NCBI GenBank assembly: GCA_016700315.1
Contig: CP065013.1
Coordinates: 513,449 to 577,448 of the forward strand
Reading direction: 5' to 3'
DNA: 64,000 nucleotides
Origin: Candidatus Saccharimonadota bacterium
Lineage (GTDB): Bacteria > Patescibacteriota > Saccharimonadia > Saccharimonadales > SZUA-47
Of this stretch, positions 5,239 to 58,276 are shown piece after piece. Below the pieces are notes generated by a model. That model did not search any database. It was given only the letters and a program-made list of their open reading frames with translations, and was not told the DNA's origin. The position numbers and the translations under genes were made by a program. The stretch's first letter is position 1. Each line of letters starts with the position of its first letter.

Positions 5239-7515
5239 ATGGCAGCGCCCAAAAAGTCTAAGAAGATAAAAATTTCTGACGAGTCACAATCGGCTAAAGT
5301 CATAAAAGACCATGCTCTGACACCGTTACCAGTAAGCGAAGAAGATGTTTCTGGTGCACCTGAAGTCTCTATCACTGTCAGAAAAGAAGGCAAAAAGATT
5401 AGTCCTATCAAAGATGGGGTTAGTGCTGTGCCAGTCCATGAAAATGAGCCAGTCATGACCAAAAAGCCAGAGTTGAACGAGGTGAAGACAGCCCCAGAAG
5501 CACCAGATAATCAGCCCAAAGAAGAATTAACAGGCCTAAGTAATGAACAAACGATTGGAGATGATTTAGTCTCGGAGCTCGAAAGCAACGAAACCGAGTT
5601 AGACAAGGTAAATCCAGCCGAGGCCCCAGCCACAACAAAAAAGCAGAAGGATGCCAAGTTGCAAAATGAAGATCGGCAAATCCCAGAAGAAGAGATTAAC
5701 GAAACAACAACTTCTGAGGTGCCGGAAAATGGAATCGACATTTTCGGGGAGGGTTCAAAAATTGAAGACCTTGATCTAGAGGCGGCTGCAAATACTCCAG
5801 TTGGACAGCTCGATTTGGCTAGCACAATAGATCCAGAAACTGAGTTTGCTGATGCCGAAATTGACGCGGCAGTTGATGAAATTGTGGCCGAAGAGTCCGA
5901 TGCTCTTCTGGAAGCTGAAGATGCCGCACGCAATTCTTTGGCAGTCGTTGAAGCCAAGCCTGCCAAGCCGAATCGCCTAAAAGAAATATTTAGTTTACCT
6001 GCAGTCAAGTGGGGCGTGGCTTTTGGCTTGGTATTACTATTTTCAATAATTTGTTTACTGCCTGCTTCCCGTTATGCAGCCTTAAATTTGTTAGGCATAA
6101 GATCAAGTAGTACAGTCACTGTTCAGGATAGTTCGACACGCCTTCCGATTAAGAATGTCAGTGTTAGTCTACAGGGCCAGACAGCCACAACCGATCAAGA
6201 AGGTAAAGCAGTTTTTGAAAAGCTCAAACTCGGTAAAGCACCACTCGAAATCAAAAAACGCGGCTTTGGTAGCATCGCTAGAGATGTTGTTTTGGGCTGG
6301 GGCAGTAACCCAATGCCGCCAGAGGGATTAACTGCGACTGGTACGGTGTATGTTTTAAATCTCAAAGATTACCCCAGTGAAAATCCTATCACCAAGGCCG
6401 AAGCAACTAGCGGAGAATTTAGTGCGAAGACAAACGACAAGGGTGAAATAAGACTAGTCACTGAGCCTTCCGACAAGGATGCAGAGATTACAATAAAAGC
6501 CGACGGCTACCGAGAAGAAAAACTATTGTTTACGGTTACAGACAAATTGAGCCGTGATGTGTTTATGGTGCCATCACGACCGCTGATCTATGTTAGTAAA
6601 CGTACGGGTAGCTATAATCTTTACCAGATAGATGCCGACGGCAAAAATGAAAAATTATTACTTGAGTCAACCGGCAAAGAGCGAGAAGACTATAGCATAC
6701 TTGCTCATCAGACCGACAATGTCACCGCGGTAGTCAGTACAAGAGAGGGTCACCGCAACAACGATGGATTTTTACTCAATGGACTGTTTATCGTAGATAG
6801 TAGCGCTCAGAACAATCGAATTAGCGAATCTGAACGTATTCAACTGATAGACTGGATTGGAGATAATTTGATTTATGCGGAAGTCAAAGAAGGAGGTAGT
6901 GCCGCCCTTCCTAACCGCAGCAAGCTAAAAAGCTATAACTACAAGACTTACGAAAACAAAGAACTTGCCAGCGCTAATTATTTTAATGAAATCTCAATAT
7001 TTAATGGGTCTGTTTTGTATGCGCCCTCAGCCTACGCAGTAAATATAGATAGTGTCAAATTTAGTAAAATAAAACCTGACGGTAAAGATCAGCAAACTGT
7101 TTTAGACAAGGAAGTCTGGAGTATTGTACGCACAGGCTACGACAGTGTAGCCTTCAACTCACAGAACACTTGGTATGAGCTAAAAAATACTGGGAGTGCA
7201 GTGAAACTAAGCGGAGCGCCAGCAAACCTCCGGAGCATGGACTATCATGATGGCCCAAACAATGTATCGCTTAGAACAGAGACGAGGGATGGAAAAGGAG
7301 TGCTACTGCTTAGAGATGCTCAGGGTTCAGAGAAGGTTATAGCTACAGTTGCTGGATTACGTCAGCCTACTCGGTGGCTAAGTGATTCGACTATAACTTA
7401 TCGAGTTGTTACGGCCAACGAGTCTGCTGAGTACGTCCTAAGTTTGCTCGGCGGCGAAGCCAGAAAAGTTACGGATGTCACAAACACTGGTGGGGCCGAG
7501 AGCTACCAAAACTAG
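5239..7515 (+). CDS. Large membrane-anchored protein with an acidic disordered N-terminus, one TM helix and a beta-rich outer part with TolB/PD40-like repeats
   Basis: 758 aa. The TM helix is WGVAFGLVLLFSIICLLPA. Segments such as YVSKRTGSYNLYQIDADGKNEKLL resemble PD40 repeats. The functional call is weak. Confidence 0.55.
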   Translation: MAAPKKSKKIKISDESQSAKVIKDHALTPLPVSEEDVSGAPEVSITVRKEGKKISPIKDGVSAVPVHENEPVMTKKPELNEVKTAPEAPDNQPKEELTGLSNEQTIGDDLVSELESNETELDKVNPAEAPATTKKQKDAKLQNEDRQIPEEEINETTTSEVPENGIDIFGEGSKIEDLDLEAAANTPVGQLDLASTIDPETEFADAEIDAAVDEIVAEESDALLEAEDAARNSLAVVEAKPAKPNRLKEIFSLPAVKWGVAFGLVLLFSIICLLPASRYAALNLLGIRSSSTVTVQDSSTRLPIKNVSVSLQGQTATTDQEGKAVFEKLKLGKAPLEIKKRGFGSIARDVVLGWGSNPMPPEGLTATGTVYVLNLKDYPSENPITKAEATSGEFSAKTNDKGEIRLVTEPSDKDAEITIKADGYREEKLLFTVTDKLSRDVFMVPSRPLIYVSKRTGSYNLYQIDADGKNEKLLLESTGKEREDYSILAHQTDNVTAVVSTREGHRNNDGFLLNGLFIVDSSAQNNRISESERIQLIDWIGDNLIYAEVKEGGSAALPNRSKLKSYNYKTYENKELASANYFNEISIFNGSVLYAPSAYAVNIDSVKFSKIKPDGKDQQTVLDKEVWSIVRTGYDSVAFNSQNTWYELKNTGSAVKLSGAPANLRSMDYHDGPNNVSLRTETRDGKGVLLLRDAQGSEKVIATVAGLRQPTRWLSDSTITYRVVTANESAEYVLSLLGGEARKVTDVTNTGGAESYQN

Positions 7516-11867: not shown

Positions 11868-12292
<425 letters not shown>

Positions 12293-22663: not shown

Positions 22664-22739
22664 GGGGGTGTAGCTCAGGGGTTAGAGCAGCGGGCTCATA
22701 ACCTGTTGGTCGTTGGTTCAATTCCAACCACCCCCACCA
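22664..22739 (+). tRNA. tRNA with CAT anticodon (Met or Ile2)
   Basis: Manual cloverleaf: GGGGGTG / GCTC-AGGGGTTA-GAGC / loop CTCATAA / GTTGG-TTCAATT-CCAAC / CACCCCC-ACCA. Confidence 0.85.
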
Positions 22740-26413: not shown

Positions 26414-26580
26414 GTCACGATCTCGGTAATCCGCCTGCTGGCGGATTCAGCCGAGTCCCGACCCGCTCTCGCCAGACTGTCAACAAGTTGCCAATCTGGA
26501 CTTCGGGTTTCCGAAGCGCCACTGGCGCTTCTCACCTGCGGCCTCAATGAGTTCGCTGGCTAAGTACTACACCTACAACC
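26414..26580 (-). other. GC-rich hairpin-dense spacer (X1) between the tRNA 3'-end repeats
   Basis: Visibly more GC-rich than its surroundings. Hairpins include GAAGCGCC-AGT-GGCGCTTC, CTTCGG-AAAC-CCGAAG and AATCCGCC-AGCAG-GGCGGATT. No ORF. Confidence 0.4.
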
Positions 26581-26616: not shown

Positions 26617-26691
26617 TGGTAGCGGGGGCAGGACTTGAACCTGCGACCTCATGGTTATGAGCCATGCGAGCTGCCACTGCTCCACCCCGCG
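26617..26691 (-). tRNA. tRNA-Met (CAT), initiator-like
   Basis: CGCGGGGTGGAGCAGTGGCAGCTCGCATGGCTCATAACCATGAGGTCGCAGGTTCAAGTCCTGCCCCCGCTACCA. It closely resembles E. coli tRNA-fMet and has an unpaired C1 x T72 position. Confidence 0.9.
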
Positions 26692-30615: not shown

Positions 30616-30692
30616 GGCAGGGTAGCTCAGTTGGTTAGAGCACAGGACTCATAAGCCTGGGGTCACGAGTTCAAATCTCGTCCCTGCTACCA
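30616..30692 (+). tRNA. tRNA with CAT anticodon (Met or Ile2)
   Basis: GGCAGGG-TA-GCTCAGTTGGTTAGAGC-A-CAGGA-CTCATAA-GCCTG-GGGTC-ACGAG-TTCAAAT-CTCGT-CCCTGCT-ACCA, followed by a terminator hairpin (CTCACCA-ACAG-TGGTGAG plus T-run). Confidence 0.85.
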
Positions 30693-41346: not shown

Positions 41347-41607
41347 ATGGGGCGAGATAAGTTAGCTAGGAATCGTGTATACGGCGAGTGCTTTGATACA
41401 TTAAGGCTCGCAGAGATGCTAGACTCAGCTAGCGCAAGAAGGCCATCAAACTACCTAAAAGCAGCGGCAGATGAACTATTTGGGGGAGATCTAAGTGGTC
41501 AATTCACCGATACTATGAACCTAGCACAAAAAGATGCTGTTAAGGCTGCCGGGCGCGATTTTCGAGCGCTCGAAACAGCTGTTAATAAAGCCCTTAGGGG
41601 TTCATAA
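41347..41607 (+). CDS. Hypothetical protein (86 aa)
   Basis: ORF tightly packed between hrcA and grpE. Confidence 0.45.
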   Translation: MGRDKLARNRVYGECFDTLRLAEMLDSASARRPSNYLKAAADELFGGDLSGQFTDTMNLAQKDAVKAAGRDFRALETAVNKALRGS

Positions 41608-42074
41608 TGGCTAAAAAGCAGCCTAATCTCGAAGAAATTGCCGAGCAACTAGCCCAAGAAGTAGCTCAGCTCACCGAAGCCCTACAGCGTGAACGAGCCG
41701 ACGCTAGCAACGTACGTCGCCGTGCCGACGAGGATCGTGCCAAAATGGCCAGCTTCTACAAGTCGGCTGTTATCAAAGAACTGTTGCCAGTAATAGATAA
41801 TTTTGAGAGGGCGCTACAGCACACGCCAGCAGAGCTTGCGGCCAATGATTTCGTTAAAGGTATTGAAGGAATCATTAAGCAGTTTGGCACCACCCTAGAA
41901 AAACTAGGTGTACAGCGCATAAAAACGGTCGGCGAGAGCTTCGACCCGGCTTTTCACGAGGCCGTTAGTGCCGAAGGCGAAGGTGAGCACGAAGTCGTCA
42001 GTGAAGAGCTGCAAAGCGGCTGGCTAATTGGAGACGAAGTCATCCGCCACGCCATGGTAAGAGTCAAGAGTTGA
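41607..42074 (+). CDS. grpE: Nucleotide exchange factor GrpE
   Basis: LLPVIDNFERAL...FDPAFHEAV...GDEVIRHAMVRV. Confidence 0.9.
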   Translation: MAKKQPNLEEIAEQLAQEVAQLTEALQRERADASNVRRRADEDRAKMASFYKSAVIKELLPVIDNFERALQHTPAELAANDFVKGIEGIIKQFGTTLEKLGVQRIKTVGESFDPAFHEAVSAEGEGEHEVVSEELQSGWLIGDEVIRHAMVRVKS

Positions 42075-42104
42075 CAAAATAAACATTAATGCTATAATGT
42101 CAGC

Positions 42105-42320
42105 ATGGATAAGTACCCAATTTCACCAGAAGAAAGAAAAAAGATTGAGGCCGCCGATGAAGCTTCTAGAGCTGAGGCTGCGCAAATCCTAGGTCCTCAG
42201 GTTGCCGAACAGTTTTTCGCTTACACCGATGCTAAAAGACAAGAACTAAAACCATCCAGCATCACTCGTGAAGAGGCCTACATGTACAGGCAAAATACCG
42301 GTAGCGAAGAAGGCTTTTAA
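42105..42320 (+). CDS. Hypothetical protein (71 aa)
   Basis: ORF only. Its stop codon lies within the putative target-site duplication of the transposon. Confidence 0.4.
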   Translation: MDKYPISPEERKKIEAADEASRAEAAQILGPQVAEQFFAYTDAKRQELKPSSITREEAYMYRQNTGSEEGF

Positions 42321-42324
42321 AAAA

Positions 42325-43363
42325 CCAGCTTCACATAACTCCTAATCTGTAGTCTCATCCAATTAGCAGAGGTTGCGTCAGCAGCCTCTGTTGTGGTTTT
42401 GTGTAGTGTATTGAGGGTTTCTTTGGTTGTAGCTGGTAGCATATTAATCCGCTGAGTAGGTTGACTACGAAGTTGTTAGGGCTTCGGTGTCTAGTGTGTT
42501 CGATCTGTTGGGTATTTTTGAGCTGATCGTTGATGGTCTCGATGATGGATCGCTTTCTCAGCATCAGTTTATCCCAGAGGCTCATCAGATGATTCTTCAT
42601 GTTGCGTCTAATGCCTGTGATGAGATGAACACCCTTTTGGAGTGGTGAAAGAAATAGCTCGTGTCCAATGTAACCTTTGTCAGCATAGAGTTTGCCCGTT
42701 AGCTTTTCTGTCAGTTTGAGCATCAGTGCTTGATTGTTGTCTGGGGCGTGACCTGGTGAGAGCAGGAATGAGATGATCTCACCTCGTTCATTGAAGGTCA
42801 GATGCAGTTTCAAACCAAAGAACCAGCCCATGGAGCTCTTGCCTCTGGTTGCAATGCCTTTGAAGACTCGATGCTTCCAGATCCGCTTGTTGTTACAAAC
42901 ATCCAGTGTCGTACTGTCCACGAAGTTGACGAGTGTGGCTGGTGCGAGAAGACTGATCATGAGAGCAAGGAGTGGCAACATACTCTCACGCATCAGTCTG
43001 AGGAATCGTGTATAGCTAACCCTGTTTGGGAAGGCATCAACCAGATGCATGCAGATATGTTCAAGGTAGTATTTCTTGAACTGACGATAGCCGCTGGCAT
43101 GAAACCAGATACAGATAGTCAGTCATTACTTCAGAGAGTGTCATGGCACCCTGTTTGTTACGAACCCGTTCTCCAGATTCAATCTGTTTTGATCTCCACT
43201 CAGGCTCAAATTTCTTGCAGAACTCGTCAACGATGTAGAATAGTGTTACTAGCTCCATATACGTGTCTCCTTTTTGTTTTATGTTTTGTTACAGAAACAG
43301 AATAACAGGGCTGACGCCCTGTTATCTACAAAACAAAATGGGGACTCTTATGTGAAGCTGGGG
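42325..43363 (-). mobile_element. IS982-family insertion sequence, copy A
   Basis: About 1.04 kb with terminal inverted repeats (CC)CCAGCTTCACATAA. It is identical over the aligned parts to copy B at 45383-47535. Confidence 0.85.
42355..43258 (-). pseudogene. IS982-family DDE transposase, frameshifted (65-aa plus 231-aa ORFs)
   Basis: FHASGYRQFKKYY can be read only after a frame change. A TGAC TGAC tandem duplication at about 43118-43125 accounts for this. DDE-region motifs are ...DSTTLDVC...ADKGYIG... Confidence 0.8.
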
Positions 43364-43530
43364 TTACCTACTATGCTGGAAAGATCGAGCGTGGCCTATC
43401 AACGCTTGAGCCAAAGCCACTTAATAGCACCTTTAATGAGTCCGCCAATATGAGTGATGCTGACTTACGAAAATTATCGACGTTAGCAATTAAGCTGCCA
43501 GGACTTGACCGAAATCTTACCAAAATCAAA

Positions 43531-44151
43531 CTACTGAGCTAGCTCGATCGTATTAAGCAGTGCTGTATCGCCCTGATTGACTAGCTGGAACGCTGTACCT
43601 TCTGGTTGACAGTTGCTTTCAGCATCACCGTATGTACCAACACAAGCTGCCCCTGTAGCAAGACTACTGAAAGCCCAGCCAGTGTAATAATAGTAGGGGC
43701 CAACTTTCTTACCTTCTTTGATCATATCGCCAGCAAAAGGCTTTGTGCTATTAGTAGATCTGTATAGGTTACCTATTGCGTATTCTGAAAGACCGTCAGC
43801 GTACTTGTCATAATCAGTCCTATACTGAACATCTGTCCCGGTAGGCTTGGCAAAGAAAGCCAATGTATCACCGTGAATTGTGTACTTGATGTCAGTCAAG
43901 CCGCTAGGGGCCTTGAAGCGCAGTCCCCACTCTTTCACTACAAAGTAACCCCCGTTAGGGTCAGTTTTATTCGTGGGCTCAGCAGTAGCCTCTTCCTTCT
44001 GCTCAATAGTGTTGGTTTGGGAGGTTGGGTATTCAGTTGTTTTAGTTTTTTGGCGGTTATAGACGAGCCAGCCAACAGTACCAAGCAAACCAATCACTAC
44101 AATAACAACCAGTATTTCTACAACCCCAAAACCCTTTTGATTATTTTTCAT
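43531..44151 (-). CDS. Type IV pilin-like protein (prepilin N-terminal domain)
   Basis: The start at MKNNQKGFGVVEILVVIVVIGLLG fits the G|FxxxE class III signal. Located inside the composite transposon. Confidence 0.6.
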   Translation of the reverse strand: MKNNQKGFGVVEILVVIVVIGLLGTVGWLVYNRQKTKTTEYPTSQTNTIEQKEEATAEPTNKTDPNGGYFVVKEWGLRFKAPSGLTDIKYTIHGDTLAFFAKPTGTDVQYRTDYDKYADGLSEYAIGNLYRSTNSTKPFAGDMIKEGKKVGPYYYYTGWAFSSLATGAACVGTYGDAESNCQPEGTAFQLVNQGDTALLNTIELAQ

Positions 44152-44251
44152 CTCAGCAGCCCACACCTTTCTTAAAGTTTGAAATCGTTTGCCCCCAGTA
44201 TAATCCTACAGCTTAATGTTTGTATATAGGACTAGGTTTCATTACTTAGTT

Positions 44252-44500
44252 CTAAAGACATTTATACATATCAGGCGCAAAAGACCTGAAAATGACGATT
44301 ATAAGTGCTAAAACTAAAATCATTCTTACATTTTTTTGATGTAAGGATTTTTTCATTTCAGGATTTGAAATTGATTTATTAGCTTTAGTCTCTTTAGCAA
44401 TTATTATTATAGCTACAAATATTAAAAGTAGTGTGATCACATCTTTAAAGTCGAGTACTCTAGAACAACTGTACATTGTCATTTTTGCGATAATATCCAT
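44252..44500 (-). CDS. Small hypothetical membrane protein
   Basis: 82 aa with two hydrophobic helices, in a very AT-rich segment. Confidence 0.35.
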   Translation of the reverse strand: MDIIAKMTMYSCSRVLDFKDVITLLLIFVAIIIIAKETKANKSISNPEMKKSLHQKNVRMILVLALIIVIFRSFAPDMYKCL

Positions 44501-44634
44501 TACTAATTTATCCTTTACTTTATTTAGTAATACTTAAACTGGCTAAGTATATAATTAGTATAATAGTTAATATTACAAGTATTTTTTTAATCATTATAGT
44601 ATTAACATTAACACAATTCGTGTATTATTAGCTA

Positions 44635-45048
44635 GTGAAACAGCAAGAAGAATTATACTTATCAAAATTAGCAGTGTTTGGAGTAGGGTTTTTGTGTGCT
44701 ATGATAGCTTTTCAAAAAGATTTGTTTATTTTTACTGCGATCCCTCTGTTGCCATTTGTAGTATTACTGTTGTTAGCCGCAAGGTCGAGCGCCGTAAAGA
44801 TAATTAATAACCAAATGTCTACTACTAAAACAGCTAAAGAAATTTACATTCTGCTTTTGATCTTAGTGCCATTCAATTACTTAAGTATGCCACATGTCGC
44901 ATCAAATGGCCCCAGTAAAGCTTTCGTCTTCATCGAAAACGCTTCCGATCAGTTGCTGGCTACTTCTTTTAAAGCATTTTTAATAAGCGGACTGCTGATT
45001 TTGATCTTGACCGTAGTAATCGTTTTCTTAGAACCAAGAAAAAATTAA
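44635..45048 (+). CDS. Hypothetical membrane protein
   Basis: 137 aa with four hydrophobic segments, AT-rich. Followed by the terminator GACTTTCT-N8-AGAAAGTC plus a T-run at about 45127-45157. Confidence 0.4.
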   Translation: MKQQEELYLSKLAVFGVGFLCAMIAFQKDLFIFTAIPLLPFVVLLLLAARSSAVKIINNQMSTTKTAKEIYILLLILVPFNYLSMPHVASNGPSKAFVFIENASDQLLATSFKAFLISGLLILILTVVIVFLEPRKN

Positions 45049-45159
45049 AAAACTACGATTGTTCGAGCATACGGATACTAACAATATCTAAGCCTTAGTT
45101 TGGTGATAAAGATCGAAGTATACTTCGACTTTCTGCACCATAGAGAAAGTCTTTTTTTA

Positions 45160-45382
45160 AGACGGAAGTTACGGAGGGTCGTGAGAGGTTCGACCGACTT
45201 TCAGCCGGCCCGCAATAACATCTTTGAAAACAAGTTTTCAAGACTTGATTGCCTTGCAGTAAGTCCTTGGCTCGTTTCACCCCGACCCCTCGGCCGAGGG
45301 TGTTGCGTGTCCGAGGCCAACTCCGCTAGAACCTATTTTGAGGAAAAATGTTGAATGAGACAAGCCCCGCCGCCTAGTATAA
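45160..45382 (+). ncRNA. Candidate structured RNA fragment (tmRNA-5'-like?), cut off by IS982 copy B
   Basis: GC-rich island next to AT-rich DNA. GGGTCGTGAGAGGTTCGAC at 45176 resembles the tmRNA 5' consensus GGGG...GGxTTCGAC. The 14-nt palindrome CCCTCGGCCGAGGG is at 45287-45300. No 3' tRNA-like half is present. Confidence 0.2.
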
Positions 45383-46235
45383 CCCCAGCTTCACATAAGA
45401 GTCCCCATTTTGTTTTGTAGATAACAGGGCGTCAGCCCTGTTATTCTGTTTCTGTAACAAAACATAAAACAAAAAGGAGACACGTATATGGAGCTAGTAA
45501 CACTATTCTACATCGTTGACGAGTTCTGCAAGAAATTTGAGCCTGAGTGGAGATCAAAACAGATTGAATCTGGAGAACGGGTTCGTAACAAACAGGGTGC
45601 CATGACACTCTCTGAAGTAATGACTGACTATCTGTATCTGGTTTCATGCCAGCGGCTATCGTCAGTTCAAGAAATACTACCTTGAACATATCTGCATGCA
45701 TCTGGTTGATGCCTTCCCAAACAGGGTTAGCTATACACGATTCCTCAGACTGATGCGTGAGAGTATGTTGCCACTCCTTGCTCTCATGATCAGTCTTCTC
45801 GCACCAGCCACACTCGTCAACTTCGTGGACAGTACGACACTGGATGTTTGTAACAACAAGCGGATCTGGAAGCATCGAGTCTTCAAAGGCATTGCAACCA
45901 GAGGCAAGAGCTCCATGGGCTGGTTCTTTGGTTTGAAACTGCATCTGACCTTCAATGAACGAGGTGAGATCATCTCATTCCTGCTCTCACCAGGTCACGC
46001 CCCAGACAACAATCAAGCACTGATGCTCAAACTGACAGAAAAGCTAACGGGCAAACTCTATGCTGACAAAGGTTACATTGGACACGAGCTATTTCTTTCA
46101 CCACTCCAAAAGGGTGTTCATCTCATCACAGGCATTAGACGCAACATGAAGAATCATCTGATGAGCCTCTGGGATAAACTGATGCTGAGAAAGCGATCCA
46201 TCATCGAGACCATCAACGATCAGCTCAAAAATACC

Positions 46236-47339
46236 GAGCTATAGGCAAAAACGTGTTGGTTTTTAATCAGTTTTACCTCTGTTAATTAGCAATAAGTAAT
46301 GTCGTCAGACATTACTTATTGTATGAAACAACGAGGTTTTAGGTATTGCAGCACCTGCAAACATAAGCTGCAAAAGTGGGGTAGGACGAATGCTGGCACA
46401 TCTCGCTGGCGATGCTCAAGTTGCACTAGTACTTGTATCCGTGCCAGACCAGATCTATCTAAGTCCTTGCTGCTGGAGCGGTTCGTTAATTGGCTCCTTG
46501 GTAAACAATCTCAGGAAGAGCTTGGTGTAGCGGCTCGCACCTGGCGAGCACAGACTGCATGGTGTTGGCAGGTTGCCCCCAAGCCAATACTAAGTGGTGA
46601 AGTCTATCCAATCCTGCTACTAGACGGTATTCGAGTTGGTAATCTTGTTTGTCTGATTGCTCGTACGCCGCAGTACGTTGTTAGCTGGTGTTGGGCGCTA
46701 TACGAAGCTGGTACGACTTGGGACAAGCTCCTTAGCACACTACCCACACCAACGGTAGTTGTTTGTGATGGTCAAAAAGGTATTCTGGTTTCCATTGCAA
46801 GAAACTGGCCGACAGCACAGATACAGCGCTGTCACTTCCATGTTTGGCAGAATGTCCGAAACAAGCTGACTCTATTCCCTCAAACCGAAGCTGGTAAGTA
46901 CTTACTGCTGCTAACCAAAATTCTGCTCAAAGGACTACACGCTCAAGAGGATGTTATTCGCTGGCAATCTAAGCTAGAAGTCTGGGAAGAACTCCATGGT
47001 GACTTTATACGGGAGCGCACGGTCAACCCAAATCCAAGGCCAGGTCAACGCAAATGGCGCTATAGTCATGAACGCTTGAGAAGTGCCCACCGACAACTTA
47101 GTAAGCTTGTGAGAGATCAACAGCTATTCACATACCTTGACAGCGGTCTGCTAACCCAAACAAACCAACAGCCGATCCCCAGAACAACCAATTACCTTGA
47201 AGGGGGTATTAACTCCCAGCTCCGAACCAAACTTAAATTGCACCGAGGCATGAAAGAGGAGCATCAAAGACGCTTAGTAGAATGGTACCTTTATACGAGA
47301 ACCGAGAGCCCAAAACCAACACGAAATTGCCGGTAGGCT
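46236..47339 (+). mobile_element. Nested 1.1-kb IS (IS256/MULE-like with an N-terminal zinc ribbon)
   Basis: 8-bp target duplication AAAATACC at 46228-46235 and 47340-47347. Imperfect terminal inverted repeats of about 25 bp (...GGCAAAAACGTGTTGGTTTT / its reverse complement ...GGCAATTTCGTGTTGGTTTT). Confidence 0.8.
46299..47336 (+). CDS. Transposase (MULE/IS256-like)
   Basis: A CxxC...CxxC zinc ribbon (CSTCKHK...CSSCTS), then LLLDGIRV, CDGQKGILVSIARNWPTAQIQRCHFHVWQNVRNKL. Confidence 0.7.
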   Translation: MSSDITYCMKQRGFRYCSTCKHKLQKWGRTNAGTSRWRCSSCTSTCIRARPDLSKSLLLERFVNWLLGKQSQEELGVAARTWRAQTAWCWQVAPKPILSGEVYPILLLDGIRVGNLVCLIARTPQYVVSWCWALYEAGTTWDKLLSTLPTPTVVVCDGQKGILVSIARNWPTAQIQRCHFHVWQNVRNKLTLFPQTEAGKYLLLLTKILLKGLHAQEDVIRWQSKLEVWEELHGDFIRERTVNPNPRPGQRKWRYSHERLRSAHRQLSKLVRDQQLFTYLDSGLLTQTNQQPIPRTTNYLEGGINSQLRTKLKLHRGMKEEHQRRLVEWYLYTRTESPKPTRNCR

Positions 47340-47556
47340 AAAATACCCAACAGATCGAACACACTAGACACCGAAGCCCTAACAACTTCGTAGTCAACCT
47401 ACTCAGCGGATTAATATGCTACCAGCTACAACCAAAGAAACCCTCAATACACTACACAAAACCACAACAGAGGCTGCTGACGCAACCTCTGCTAATTGGA
47501 TGAGACTACAGATTAGGAGTTATGTGAAGCTGGGGTTAAAAAAAGTAAAATGATAG

Positions 47557-47583
47557 CTAGCACTCAAAGGTCTTGACTGCTAG
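47557..47583 (+). promoter_or_regulatory. CIRCE-like operator 1 upstream of dnaK
   Basis: CTAGCACTC-N9-GACTGCTAG (14/18). It overlaps the -35 TTGACT at 47573-47578. Confidence 0.6.
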
Positions 47584-47603
47584 TTTTTGTTTTTGCTACA
47601 ATA

Positions 47604-47630
47604 TTAGCAGTCTACACAGTAGAGTGCTAA
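47604..47630 (+). promoter_or_regulatory. CIRCE operator 2 upstream of dnaK
   Basis: TTAGCAGTC-N9-GAGTGCTAA (17/18), just downstream of the -10 TACAAT at 47597-47602. Confidence 0.8.
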
Positions 47631-49664: not shown

Positions 49665-49702
49665 TCTCCTGGAGTCCAAGAGCCGCGAAAAGGATTGTTA
49701 CA

Positions 49703-49883
<181 letters not shown>

Positions 49884-49960
49884 TCTGCCGTTTTGGGTAG
49901 TTACAAAGCCCTACATGTTGCAGATAAAAAAAGTTGTGCAATTTTTAGTAAAATATAACC

Positions 49961-50247: not shown

Positions 50248-50274
50248 TTGGCACTCGAAGGTCTAAAGTGCTAA
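50248..50274 (+). promoter_or_regulatory. CIRCE-like operator upstream of the NYN-dnaJ pair
   Basis: TTGGCACTC-N9-AAGTGCTAA (16/18). Confidence 0.65.
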
Positions 50275-58091: not shown

Positions 58092-58256
58092 AATAAAAAA
58101 CCCAGACATGCTGGGGTTTTTATTTGGAGATAGCAAAGCAAGCCAACTGCTTGGCTTGCGTGGGACTTGAACGGGCGGAGCGTTGTTGGACGCTACTCGT
58201 CCAACCGCGAGCCGGGTTCGCGAGCAAAATGCAACGCATTTTGACTTGTGAATCAA

Positions 58257-58276
58257 AAGTCCCAGTGGCCCCTCCA
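58257..58276 (+). other. Partial duplicate of the tRNA-Lys 3' end (att-like)
   Basis: AAGTCCCAGTGGCCCCTCCA matches the tRNA sequence AAGTCCCAGTGGTCCCTCCA (58072-58091) at 19/20 positions. Confidence 0.75.

Follow-up and report, generated by a model that had tools for sequence, protein, structure and literature searches.

Composite transposons of the Tn5 (IS50) and Tn10 (IS10) type consist of two inverted copies of one insertion sequence (IS) around unrelated cargo; their outer ends serve as the transposon ends, a single short target duplication flanks the whole, and their IS copies tend to decay. The IS982 family (ISfinder; prototype IS982 of Lactococcus lactis) comprises elements of 962-1155 bp with terminal inverted repeats, a single DDE transposase gene and target duplications of 3-9 bp. 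To our knowledge, few composite transposons have been documented in Saccharibacteria or other CPR bacteria. In the 64-kb stretch of a Saccharibacteria genome analyzed here (the window), two inverted IS982-family copies enclose about 2 kb of foreign DNA upstream of dnaK. This arrangement is probably a Tn5/Tn10-type composite transposon in which an IS982-family element of Candidatus Saccharibacteria forms both arms. Its features are as follows.

42317..42324, no strand: left direct repeat TTAAAAAA, overlapping the stop codon of a 71-aa ORF
42325..43366, minus strand: IS982 copy A, 1042 bp; IRL is the inner end, and the outer IRR tip is 5 nt short
42355..43050, minus strand: copy A transposase, C-terminal DDE part, 231 aa
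43061..43258, minus strand: copy A transposase, N-terminal fragment, 65 aa, stopping at a 4-nt duplication (ATGACTGACTATC)
43367..45379, no strand: cargo, 2013 bp
43531..44151, minus strand: gene for a 206-aa prepilin-type (type IV pilin-like) protein; motif G↓FGVVE (PF07963)
44252..44500, minus strand: hydrophobic ORF, 82 aa, in DNA of 23-30% G+C
44635..45048, plus strand: ORF with several hydrophobic segments, 137 aa
45172..45291, minus strand: X element, the GC-rich RNA-like fragment of the cargo, with a degenerate helix P1
45380..46235, plus strand: IS982 copy B, left part, with IRL, a 65-aa fragment and a transposase ORF ending early at ...KNTEL
46236..47339, plus strand: nested IS (IS1249 group, IS256 family), 1104 bp, splitting copy B
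46299..47336, plus strand: transposase of the nested IS, 345 aa
47340..47538, plus strand: right part of IS982 copy B; its IRR terminus is intact (...GCTGGGGTTA)
47536..47543, no strand: right direct repeat TTAAAAAA, sharing its initial 3 nt with the IS terminus
47557..47630, plus strand: dnaK control region, with CIRCE 1, promoter and CIRCE 2 intact

Alignment of the two arms showed 100% complementarity over 856 nt (42511-43366 with 45380-46235) and 98% over 204 nt (42315-42518 with 47340-47543), where mismatches were confined to the extreme outer tip. The IRL ends of both copies point inward and both outer ends are IRR; with inverted, identical copies, neither one IS by itself nor a plain misjoin could produce both outer junctions. 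A search of the window for IS982 ends returned four matches (0.58 expected), which are the four ends described here, and no further copy. The cargo, likewise, is unique in the window. Two copies of one IS thus surround a cargo, as in a composite transposon, and copy A was also present in four independent contigs (L002, L013, L014, and L023). The first-pass annotation had proposed a composite of two IS982-like copies, identical and facing IRL to IRL apart from the nested IS and the outer tip; the arm alignment, the family profiles and the empty sites described below all agree with that description.

The family assignment, which the first-pass annotation had left for classification, rests on curated profiles: the C-terminal part of the copy A transposase scored 205.8 bits against NF033520 (IS982; cut-off, 130) and 215.9 bits against PF13612 (E = 3.6e-64; cut-off, 27). 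Like other family members, the element is about 1 kb long (1047 bp in full, with copy A retaining 1042 bp), and copy B ends in a perfect 19-bp terminal inverted repeat, TAACCCCAGCTTCACATAA. Six relatives share the same termini (TAACCCCAG...CTGGGGTTA). Together with the perfect repeat of copy B, these place each IS end 3 nt beyond where it had initially been marked, although the arrangement of the ends stands. The outer tip of copy A reads AAAAACCAGC versus TAACCCCAGC; the shortening noted earlier is therefore real but amounts to 5 nt, or to the originally reported 2 nt of the C-run in the equivalent reading in which the IS ends at CCCC. The element differs from described family members in its host, a CPR bacterium, and in its TAACCCC... 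termini. It also differs in lacking an uninterrupted transposase gene: the same 4-nt duplication in both copies shifts the frame, leaving separate ORFs of 65 aa and 231 aa. At this site the relatives read ATGACCATC and their single transposase genes are intact at 299-300 aa (299 aa in four of the six and 300 aa in one, with L027 offering only a 261-aa ORF). Copies A and B are thus pseudogenes of an IS982 member rather than representatives of a different family. The truncated ORF of copy B is deposited at NCBI as QQS65412.1 under the title IS982 family transposase, and intact 299-aa transposases, about 98% identical, occur in public metagenomes (P0090 and P0221).

The element nested in copy B resembles the IS1249 group of the IS256 family in its profile match (341 bits against NF033544; cut-off, 300), N-terminal zinc-binding motif, imperfect terminal repeats and target duplications, which in this group are 8-9 bp. 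Here the 8-bp duplication AAAATACC lies at 46228-35 and 47340-47. At 1104 bp and 345 aa, the element is shorter than the group model (382 positions), and the libraries consulted held no name for it. The same IS was found elsewhere flanked by the 8-bp duplications GTAATTTT and AGAAATCT; among the contigs listed it has inserted, with matching duplications, at three sites or more, further flank combinations also occur, and the collection's index lists its exact protein in 43 blocks. The nested IS is thus active elsewhere.

The composite unit lies between grpE and dnaK, as first annotated, though not directly after grpE, since a conserved 71-aa ORF (orf71) intervenes; it occupies an A-rich target between orf71 and the dnaK promoter, 18 nt upstream of the first dnaK CIRCE. 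The outer flanks match at 8 of 8 positions, with a chance probability of about 3e-5 given local base composition. The A-run is the only certain target DNA, and by itself would match by chance with a probability of about 0.002-0.006. Because the terminal TTA is part of the IS inverted repeat, the target duplication, which seems real, comprises 6-8 bp of A/T only; the repeat reported earlier around the whole unit is confirmed at both ends, but not its fixed length of 8 bp. The inner flanks, TTACCTAC and (reverse complement) TTATACTA, are unlike the outer ones. One low-complexity repeat therefore surrounds the pair and none surrounds each IS, as in a composite transposon. Around the six solo IS982 relatives, no clear duplication was seen.

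Uninterrupted grpE-dnaK spacers, the comparison suggested by the first-pass annotation, favor insertion. In six conspecific contigs (L005-L008, L011, and L012) with flanks 98.9-99.3% identical to the window, grpE, orf71 and dnaK are contiguous, only about 220 bp separate orf71 from dnaK, and neither the pilin cargo nor the IS is present. The target is single copy in these contigs, reading CTAGAAAA in the empty haplotype. Either the pilin cargo at this position without IS copies or an 8-mer already duplicated in empty sites had been named beforehand as evidence against a composite; we found neither. Because strains with flanks about 99.3% identical lack the insert and carry a single-copy target, the 5.2-kb block is an insertion and not native DNA bracketed by two IS copies.

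Filled and empty alleles coexist in the species, and filled alleles also occur in strains that are only 97.7% identical (L009 and L010). Divergence between filled and empty alleles peaks sharply at the junction, with 6 and 13 differences in two adjoining 50-nt bins versus 0-5 elsewhere. This coexistence and the peak point to an old polymorphism spread by recombination, in which homologous recombination would exchange filled and empty alleles.

These signs of an old allele are also compatible with a stepwise origin at a hotspot, an unlikely alternative. Under this alternative, a solo IS982, today's copy B with its IRR on the dnaK side, came first, either as an old resident or by targeted insertion. 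Copy A and the cargo joined it later, brought in by a further IS-mediated event or acquired through recombination with a different IS-bounded segment, and chance would account for part of the A-run "duplication". A distant Saccharibacteria metagenome-assembled genome (L028; DnaK 76% identical) carries a solo IS982 relative whose IRR lies 19 nt from the CIRCE, versus 18 nt here, with a degenerate second IRR remnant abutting its IRL. The abnormal outer tip of copy A and the restriction of unambiguous target DNA to the A-run fit the same history. However, no contig of the species has a solo copy at the dnaK site, copies A and B are 100% identical down to the frameshift, and the other five IS982 relatives sit at unrelated sites. 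Moreover, no simple mechanism is known by which an inverted IS and foreign cargo could enter precisely at the boundary between a resident IS end and the adjoining DNA and leave both flanks syntenic.

An assembly artefact, in which cargo from another IS-flanked locus was threaded between two IS copies, is improbable. The assembly is not flawless: homopolymer or poly-G junk occupies 49692-49933 and about 11880-12060 of the window, the former standing in for 1.66 kb of sequence that L005, L042 and L043 contain. The inner junction from cargo to the IRL of copy B was found in no independent contig; cargo contigs stop at 45347 or 45319, and look-ups across this junction returned nothing. Against an artefact, both outer junctions are IRR ends and each recurs in several independent assemblies, the left in L001, L002, L004, L009 and L010 and the right, from copy B to dnaK, in L042-L044. 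A single JGI contig (L002) joins orf71, copy A and cargo, L044 spans the nested IS, copy B and dnaK, and cargo-side contigs run into the IRL at 43337-43366, as expected. A 988-kb NCBI record also encodes exactly the truncated copy B ORF. Two independent IS insertions on either side of native grpE-dnaK spacer DNA, perhaps with a later inversion, have a negligible probability: inverted IS pairs often arise in this way and the inner flanks of A and B are weakly similar (TTA(CC)TACTA(T/G)GC), but the short, cargo-free empty sites refute native spacer DNA, neither IS has its own matching duplication, and the flanks lack the pattern that an inversion would leave, with the outer flank of one copy matching the inner flank of the other in reverse complement.

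On the composite-transposon reading, two copies of the 1047-bp IS would have come to flank about 2 kb of a tRNA-adjacent variable region, capturing the X element, the two small membrane ORFs and the pilin-like gene. A transposase would then have used the two outward-facing IRR ends, with their 19-bp repeats, to insert a unit of about 4.1 kb and duplicate 6-8 bp of target. Since both copies carry the same frameshift, the enzyme would have been supplied in trans; the intact metagenomic transposases P0090 and P0221 are a possible source. Later decay is recorded in the sequence: the IS1249-group element inserted into the copy B transposase gene, leaving its 8-bp duplication, and copy A lost its outermost 5 nt. 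Given the shared frameshift, the interruption of copy B and the shortened tip of copy A, the unit can no longer move on its own; mobility would take intact outer ends and an available transposase, and the unit lacks this combination. Among the contigs shown with the exact cargo gene or IS ORF, all had one arrangement and none a second insertion site. The search for other cargo copies proposed earlier did recover further contigs, of up to about 3 kb and in the same context, but no other site; of the 23 listed public contigs with the cargo gene, the 10 that were read are at most 3 kb and IS bounded. We infer transposition as a whole unit, from this one site. Compared with Tn5 and Tn10, the unit has no resistance gene, both of its IS copies are defective, one outer end is damaged, and there is a single site at which its movement is seen. 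As composite transposons go, it is genuine but ordinary, and it is now a crippled, decayed relic.

The cargo is as first described: a prepilin-like gene, two small membrane ORFs and a G+C-rich non-coding stretch. The prepilin-type product matched PF07963 at 23.5 bits (cut-off, 21.2), and its N-terminus, KG↓FGVVEILVVIVVIGLLG, has the cleavage/methylation motif with Glu at +5 followed by a hydrophobic helix. Many of its 89 homologues are named prepilin-type, one is labeled Candidatus Saccharibacteria, and most are unnamed. The 82-aa and 137-aa ORFs lie in DNA of 23-33% G+C. The former was called as a gene in L013-L018, with no family found beyond a weak AgrB match below cut-off, and the latter matched no Pfam family.

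The G+C-rich stretch, which we call the X element, is conserved and shows strong covariation, and its usual place is after tRNA genes. The cargo copy scored 95 bits (E = 7e-33) against covariance model R1, with the copy itself among the 26 sequences from which R1 was built; it is 79% identical to two copies in L055 and shares an exact 25-mer with 31 metagenome contigs. Rfam searches returned only tRNA matches and noise (E ≤5 for the cargo, ≤1 for L055) and no match to the X element. The nearest analogues are the tRNA-gene attachment sites used by integrative elements and by non-autonomous (CIME-like) derivatives of these. As at those sites, the 3' end of an intact tRNA recurs downstream as a direct repeat running from T-loop to CCA, and in L086 a 3.2-kb islet carrying toxin-antitoxin-like genes lies between two X units. 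In contrast to those sites, the interval is only about 200-250 nt and no integrase is consistently adjacent. The X core, about 100 nt of strongly covarying RNA-type structure with three helices in which G-U pairs are conserved, lies within the T-loop of a second, partial copy of the neighboring tRNA. Before the core comes the T-arm of that tRNA in reverse complement, and after it the tRNA 3' end is copied together with its CCA. We tentatively suggest that the cargo fragment is a member of an undescribed family of structured RNA elements that are linked to tRNAs in CPR bacteria. Such an element could be a new tRNA-targeting miniature mobile element or attachment module, or it could be a tRNA-mimicking small RNA.

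Downstream of the insertion, dnaK keeps its promoter (TTGACT-18-TACAAT, 47573-47602) and two CIRCE elements (47557-83 and 47604-30), in agreement with the first-pass annotation. The insert cuts dnaK off from any read-through from hrcA-grpE-orf71; because its own promoter and both CIRCE operators are kept, HrcA control of dnaK should persist. The hrcA-grpE-dnaK cluster of a reduced genome tolerates a 5-kb insertion if dnaK retains its promoter and CIRCE operators. Filled and empty alleles of a composite transposon occur within one species, with enough public contigs to follow them, and a related IS at the same CIRCE spacing in a second lineage hints at a hotspot or target preference. The X element is the most interesting by-product, with larger potential value than the transposon: if either of its proposed roles is true, the composite transposon would have captured it from a tRNA-adjacent islet.

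The block between grpE and dnaK is framed by two inverted copies of one IS982-family element, copy A (42325-43366, minus strand) and copy B (45380-47538, plus strand), whose left ends (IRL) face the cargo at 43367-45379 and whose right ends (IRR) face outward. The inner arms (42511-43366 and 45380-46235) show 100% complementarity over 856 nt, and the outer arms (42315-42518 and 47340-47543) are 98% complementary over 204 nt, with mismatches at the outermost tip only. A 14-mer from the IS end matched the 64-kb window four times (0.58 expected), exactly at the four ends. The 231-aa open reading frame (ORF) of copy A scored 205.8 bits against the NCBIfam IS982 model, above the curated cutoff of 130, and also matched Pfam PF13612 (E value, 3.6e-64); the truncated ORF of copy B is identical in sequence to QQS65412.1, listed at NCBI as an IS982 family transposase of a Candidatus Saccharibacteria bacterium (988-kb record). 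Six IS982 relatives were found in Saccharimonadales/Saccharibacteria metagenome-assembled genomes (MAGs), with transposase identities of 76 to 86%. All six terminate in TAACCCCAG...CTGGGGTTA or a close variant, and the terminal repeat of copy B, TAACCCCAGCTTCACATAA, is perfect over 19 bp. These termini indicate that the TTA belongs to the IS and not to the flank, to which the first-pass annotation had assigned it; its IS coordinates were otherwise correct to within 3 nt. The full element is 1047 bp long and copy A 1042 bp, with an outer tip of AAAAACCAGC where TAACCCCAGC is expected. An inward-facing terminator-like hairpin lies at each IS end.

A single transposase of 299 to 300 aa is encoded by five of the six relatives. 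Where relatives read ATGACCATC, both window copies read ATGACTGACTATC, a 4-nt tandem duplication that leaves two ORFs, of 65 and 231 aa, in place of one gene. Public metagenomes contain intact transposases of 299 aa with about 98% identity (proteins P0090 and P0221). In the protein cluster of P0090, the 231-aa frameshift-type ORF appears on P/R/S/I and on T/G/N/V variant backgrounds, together with intact 299-aa forms; given the two backgrounds, the 4-nt duplication would be either old and recombined or recurrent. Copy B is further interrupted at 46236-47339 by a 1104-bp element lying between two copies of AAAATACC and scoring 341 bits against the IS1249 model (IS256 family; cutoff, 300). Further public contigs carry this nested element elsewhere, flanked by 8-bp duplications (GTAATTTT and AGAAATCT), and it is an independent, active IS. 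In contigs L048, L049, L050, and L053, the left and right flanks of the IS1249-type element disagree; these may be chimeric assemblies through the multicopy IS, or recombinants.

Same-species contigs were retrieved by exact-protein look-up with GrpE and the 71-aa ORF (orf71). Uninterrupted grpE-dnaK spacers, with which the first-pass annotation had proposed to compare the locus, exist in six of these contigs (L005-L008, L011, and L012), which are 98.9 to 99.3% identical to the window flanks. In them the order is hrcA-orf86-grpE-orf71-dnaK, orf71 and dnaK lie about 220 bp apart, and neither IS nor cargo is present. The empty site reads GGATT CTAGAAAA ATTAAATAAGA and the filled site GGCTT TTAAAAAA (5.2 kb) TTAAAAAA AGTAAAATGA, the target being present once where the insert is absent. 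For the filled haplotype, the putative ancestral empty site would read GGCTTTTAAAAAA(A)GTAAAATGATAGC, and the sequence at the outer junctions of the unit is GATTAGGAGTTATGTGAAGCTGG. The left junction is reproduced in L001, L002, L004, L009, and L010, of which L002 reads on through copy A into the cargo; the right junction is reproduced in L042-L044, with the nested IS included in L044.

The composite IS982 transposon first proposed for the grpE-dnaK interval is borne out by the inverted copies, the profile matches, the empty sites, and the junctions in independent contigs, and the block probably inserted as a unit. One site and a low-complexity duplication weakly suggest that this unit was mobile. 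TTAAAAAA adjoins both outer ends, and the direct repeat that had been read as an 8-bp target duplication stands; its length depends on where the IS ends. An end at CCCC implies an 8-bp duplication and a loss of 2 nt from the C-run of copy A; an end at TAACCCC leaves the A-run (6 nt) as the only certain duplication, copy A then lacking the terminal TAACC. From local composition, the probability of a chance match is ∼3e-5 for 8/8 and ∼0.002 to 0.006 for A5-A6. Target duplications were not evident around the six solo relatives, and the literature gave no usable figure for IS982 target-duplication length. The listed contigs with the exact pilin-like cargo protein or the exact 231-aa ORF reveal no second insertion site; they are at most ∼3 kb long, and all fit this one arrangement.

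A stepwise or hotspot origin, which we regard as unlikely, is kept alive by a solo IS982 relative found at near-equal CIRCE spacing in a second lineage. On L028, a MAG contig from a distant member of the Saccharibacteria (identities of 76% for DnaK, 69% for HrcA, and 41% for GrpE), this relative lies between grpE and dnaK (5640-6870). A distance of 19 nt separates its IRR from the first CIRCE element downstream (18 nt for copy B), and a degenerate IRR remnant adjoins its IRL. The remaining five relatives lie in unrelated contexts. The L028 arrangement suggests either that the clade prefers the grpE-dnaK spot or that IS982 has long been resident there.

We give little credence to an assembly artifact, even though the window is not free of defects. 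Directly after dnaK, 242 nt of poly-G-rich sequence (49692-49933; 149 G) take the place of ∼1.66 kb carried by L005, L042, and L043 (flavin reductase, DUF5680, and two small genes) and are most likely an assembly or sequencing artifact; a further stretch at ∼11880-12060, rich in long homopolymers of C, T, and G, appears to be of low sequence quality. In addition, the junction between the cargo and the IRL of copy B was not seen in any independent contig, and look-ups of ORFs spanning it returned no match. The cargo contigs (L013-L022; window 43337-45347) terminate either within an A5 run (45347) or at 45319, and thus 33 to 61 nt short of copy B, versus 30 nt inside copy A on the other side. 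Our guess is that strain microheterogeneity within 31 nt of the repeat boundary stops these contigs early. The homopolymer junk lies outside the transposon, and most of the transposon's junctions are confirmed in other contigs. Three further explanations were rejected: native DNA bracketed by two IS hits, since the cargo is missing from empty sites; two independent IS insertions plus an inversion, since the expected flank pattern is missing and empty sites lack the cargo; and a single IS plus misassembly, which cannot account for outer junctions that are both IRR ends.

The transposon is decayed and polymorphic in the population. On its own, the unit is now immobile, with the same frameshift in both transposase genes, an interruption in copy B, and damage at one outer end. 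The shared frameshift has two possible origins: an already defective copy gave rise to the second with the help of a transposase acting in trans, or the copies were homogenized; the intact proteins P0090 and P0221 make supply in trans from an intact relative plausible. Filled alleles occur in backgrounds 97.7 to 100% identical to the window (L009 and L010) and empty alleles at 99.3%, so that presence of the insert does not track flank similarity. Filled and empty alleles differ at 6 positions in the left 50 nt and 13 in the right 50 nt, compared with 0 to 5 per 50 nt elsewhere. These 19 differences within ∼50 nt of the insertion point (window 42270-42324 plus 47536-47600 versus L005 8690-8790) include a 6-nt indel and an altered left half of CIRCE 1 (CTAGCACTC versus CTAGCAGTC). 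The pattern is consistent with an old insertion polymorphism whose wider flanks would have been homogenized by recombination.

As the first-pass annotation had it, dnaK keeps its own promoter (TTGACT-18-TACAAT, 47573-47602) and two CIRCE elements (47557-83 and 47604-30) just downstream of the insertion. Upstream, orf71 has a promoter of perfect consensus (TTGACA-16-TATAAT, 42071-98). Given the retained promoter and CIRCE elements and the hairpins at the IS ends, dnaK would be insulated from upstream transcription and still controlled by HrcA. Two small conserved ORFs, orf86 between hrcA and grpE (41347-41607) and orf71 between grpE and dnaK (42071-42320), had no match in Pfam or NCBIfam. A third CIRCE-like repeat, TTGGCACTC-N9-AAGTGCTAA, lies at 50248-50274, upstream of the NYN-domain ORF preceding dnaJ.

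The description of the cargo as a prepilin-like gene, two small membrane ORFs, and an RNA-like fragment also held. The 206-aa product has the prepilin motif G|FGVVE, a PF07963 match, and 89 homologues (many named prepilin-type, one Candidatus Saccharibacteria, and most nameless in the sources). In two other Saccharibacteria, homologues adjoin serine recombinase or reverse-transcriptase genes: serine recombinase genes lie beside the homologue on L055 (1-5880) and L056 (1-5125), the latter also encoding a 294-aa reverse transcriptase (RVT_1). These neighborhoods suggest that variable or mobile regions may be the habitual setting of the pilin-like gene. The two other ORFs, of 82 and 137 aa, are hydrophobic; their DNA is 23 to 33% G+C, and neither gave a family. 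A 58-aa frame at 43369-43542, considered as a truncated gene, had no homologue and is unsupported.

The RNA-like fragment has homologues elsewhere and is a copy of a conserved structured element, here called X. An Rfam search of the cargo gave no credible match, and neither strand of the G+C-rich stretch gave a significant fold from its sequence alone (z, ∼−1.6); the structure is visible only from homologues. On L055 (8730-9098, minus strand), a tandem pair of copies next to tRNA-Arg shares 79% identity with cargo X, and an exact 25-mer of cargo X, CTTGAAAACTTGTTTTCAAAGATGT, occurs in 31 metagenome contigs; X had zero matches in viral contigs. Aligning 26 distinct copies gave support for three helices, with 97.3% of cells paired versus 83% in shuffles, 108 cells changed on both sides versus 33, and a covariation score of 0.408 that fell to ≤0.072 with partners slid. 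Conserved G-U pairs point to an RNA on the tRNA-sense strand.

Across the window, L055, and L058-L088, the X core of ∼100 nt is embedded in the T-loop of an incomplete copy of the neighboring tRNA. After the intact tRNA, a terminator hairpin usually comes first, then the variable loop and T-arm of that tRNA as a reverse complement. The variable loop and 5′ T-stem follow once more in direct orientation, ahead of the X core, and the unit closes with a tRNA 3′ copy (3′ T-loop, T-stem, acceptor strand, and CCA). With the intact tRNA as anchor, 8 of the 9 loci that could be tested had a significant reverse-complement copy of the T-arm; general pairing of the upstream "S" region with the tRNA 3′ copy was not significant with crude coordinates.

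X and X-like units in the window
26439-26546, minus strand: native diverged X, found with the covariance model; it closely follows tRNA-Met, and a copy of the 3′ end of that tRNA closes it
45172-45291, minus strand: cargo X, with helix P1 degenerate
∼58130-58276, plus strand: X-like unit with a different core and the same architecture, following tRNA-Lys

No strain without the native copy is on record in our look-ups. Three tRNA genes with CAT anticodons lie within 8 kb (22664-22739, 26617-26691, and 30616-30692), presumably initiator, elongator Met, and lysidine-modified Ile.

Genes around X are diverse, and a constant protein partner was rejected, with serine recombinases making up just 2 of 66 neighbors. 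A group I intron was likewise rejected, as published Patescibacteria tRNA introns lie at 35/36 of the anticodon loop. On L086 (100-3510), two X units, both ending in tRNA-Lys 3′ sequence and 3.4 kb apart, enclose an apparent small islet with direct repeats at its borders; its 3.2 kb encode an AAA_33/zeta-toxin-like kinase and a RelB/NikA-like protein, with a weak subthreshold MazG-like match. The partner tRNA of cargo X would fall where copy B now sits, and the cargo resembles a fragment of an islet next to a tRNA gene. The composite transposon itself is of modest interest; the tRNA-linked X merits separate follow-up, with an attachment module, a miniature integrative element, and a tRNA-mimicking RNA as candidates for what it is.
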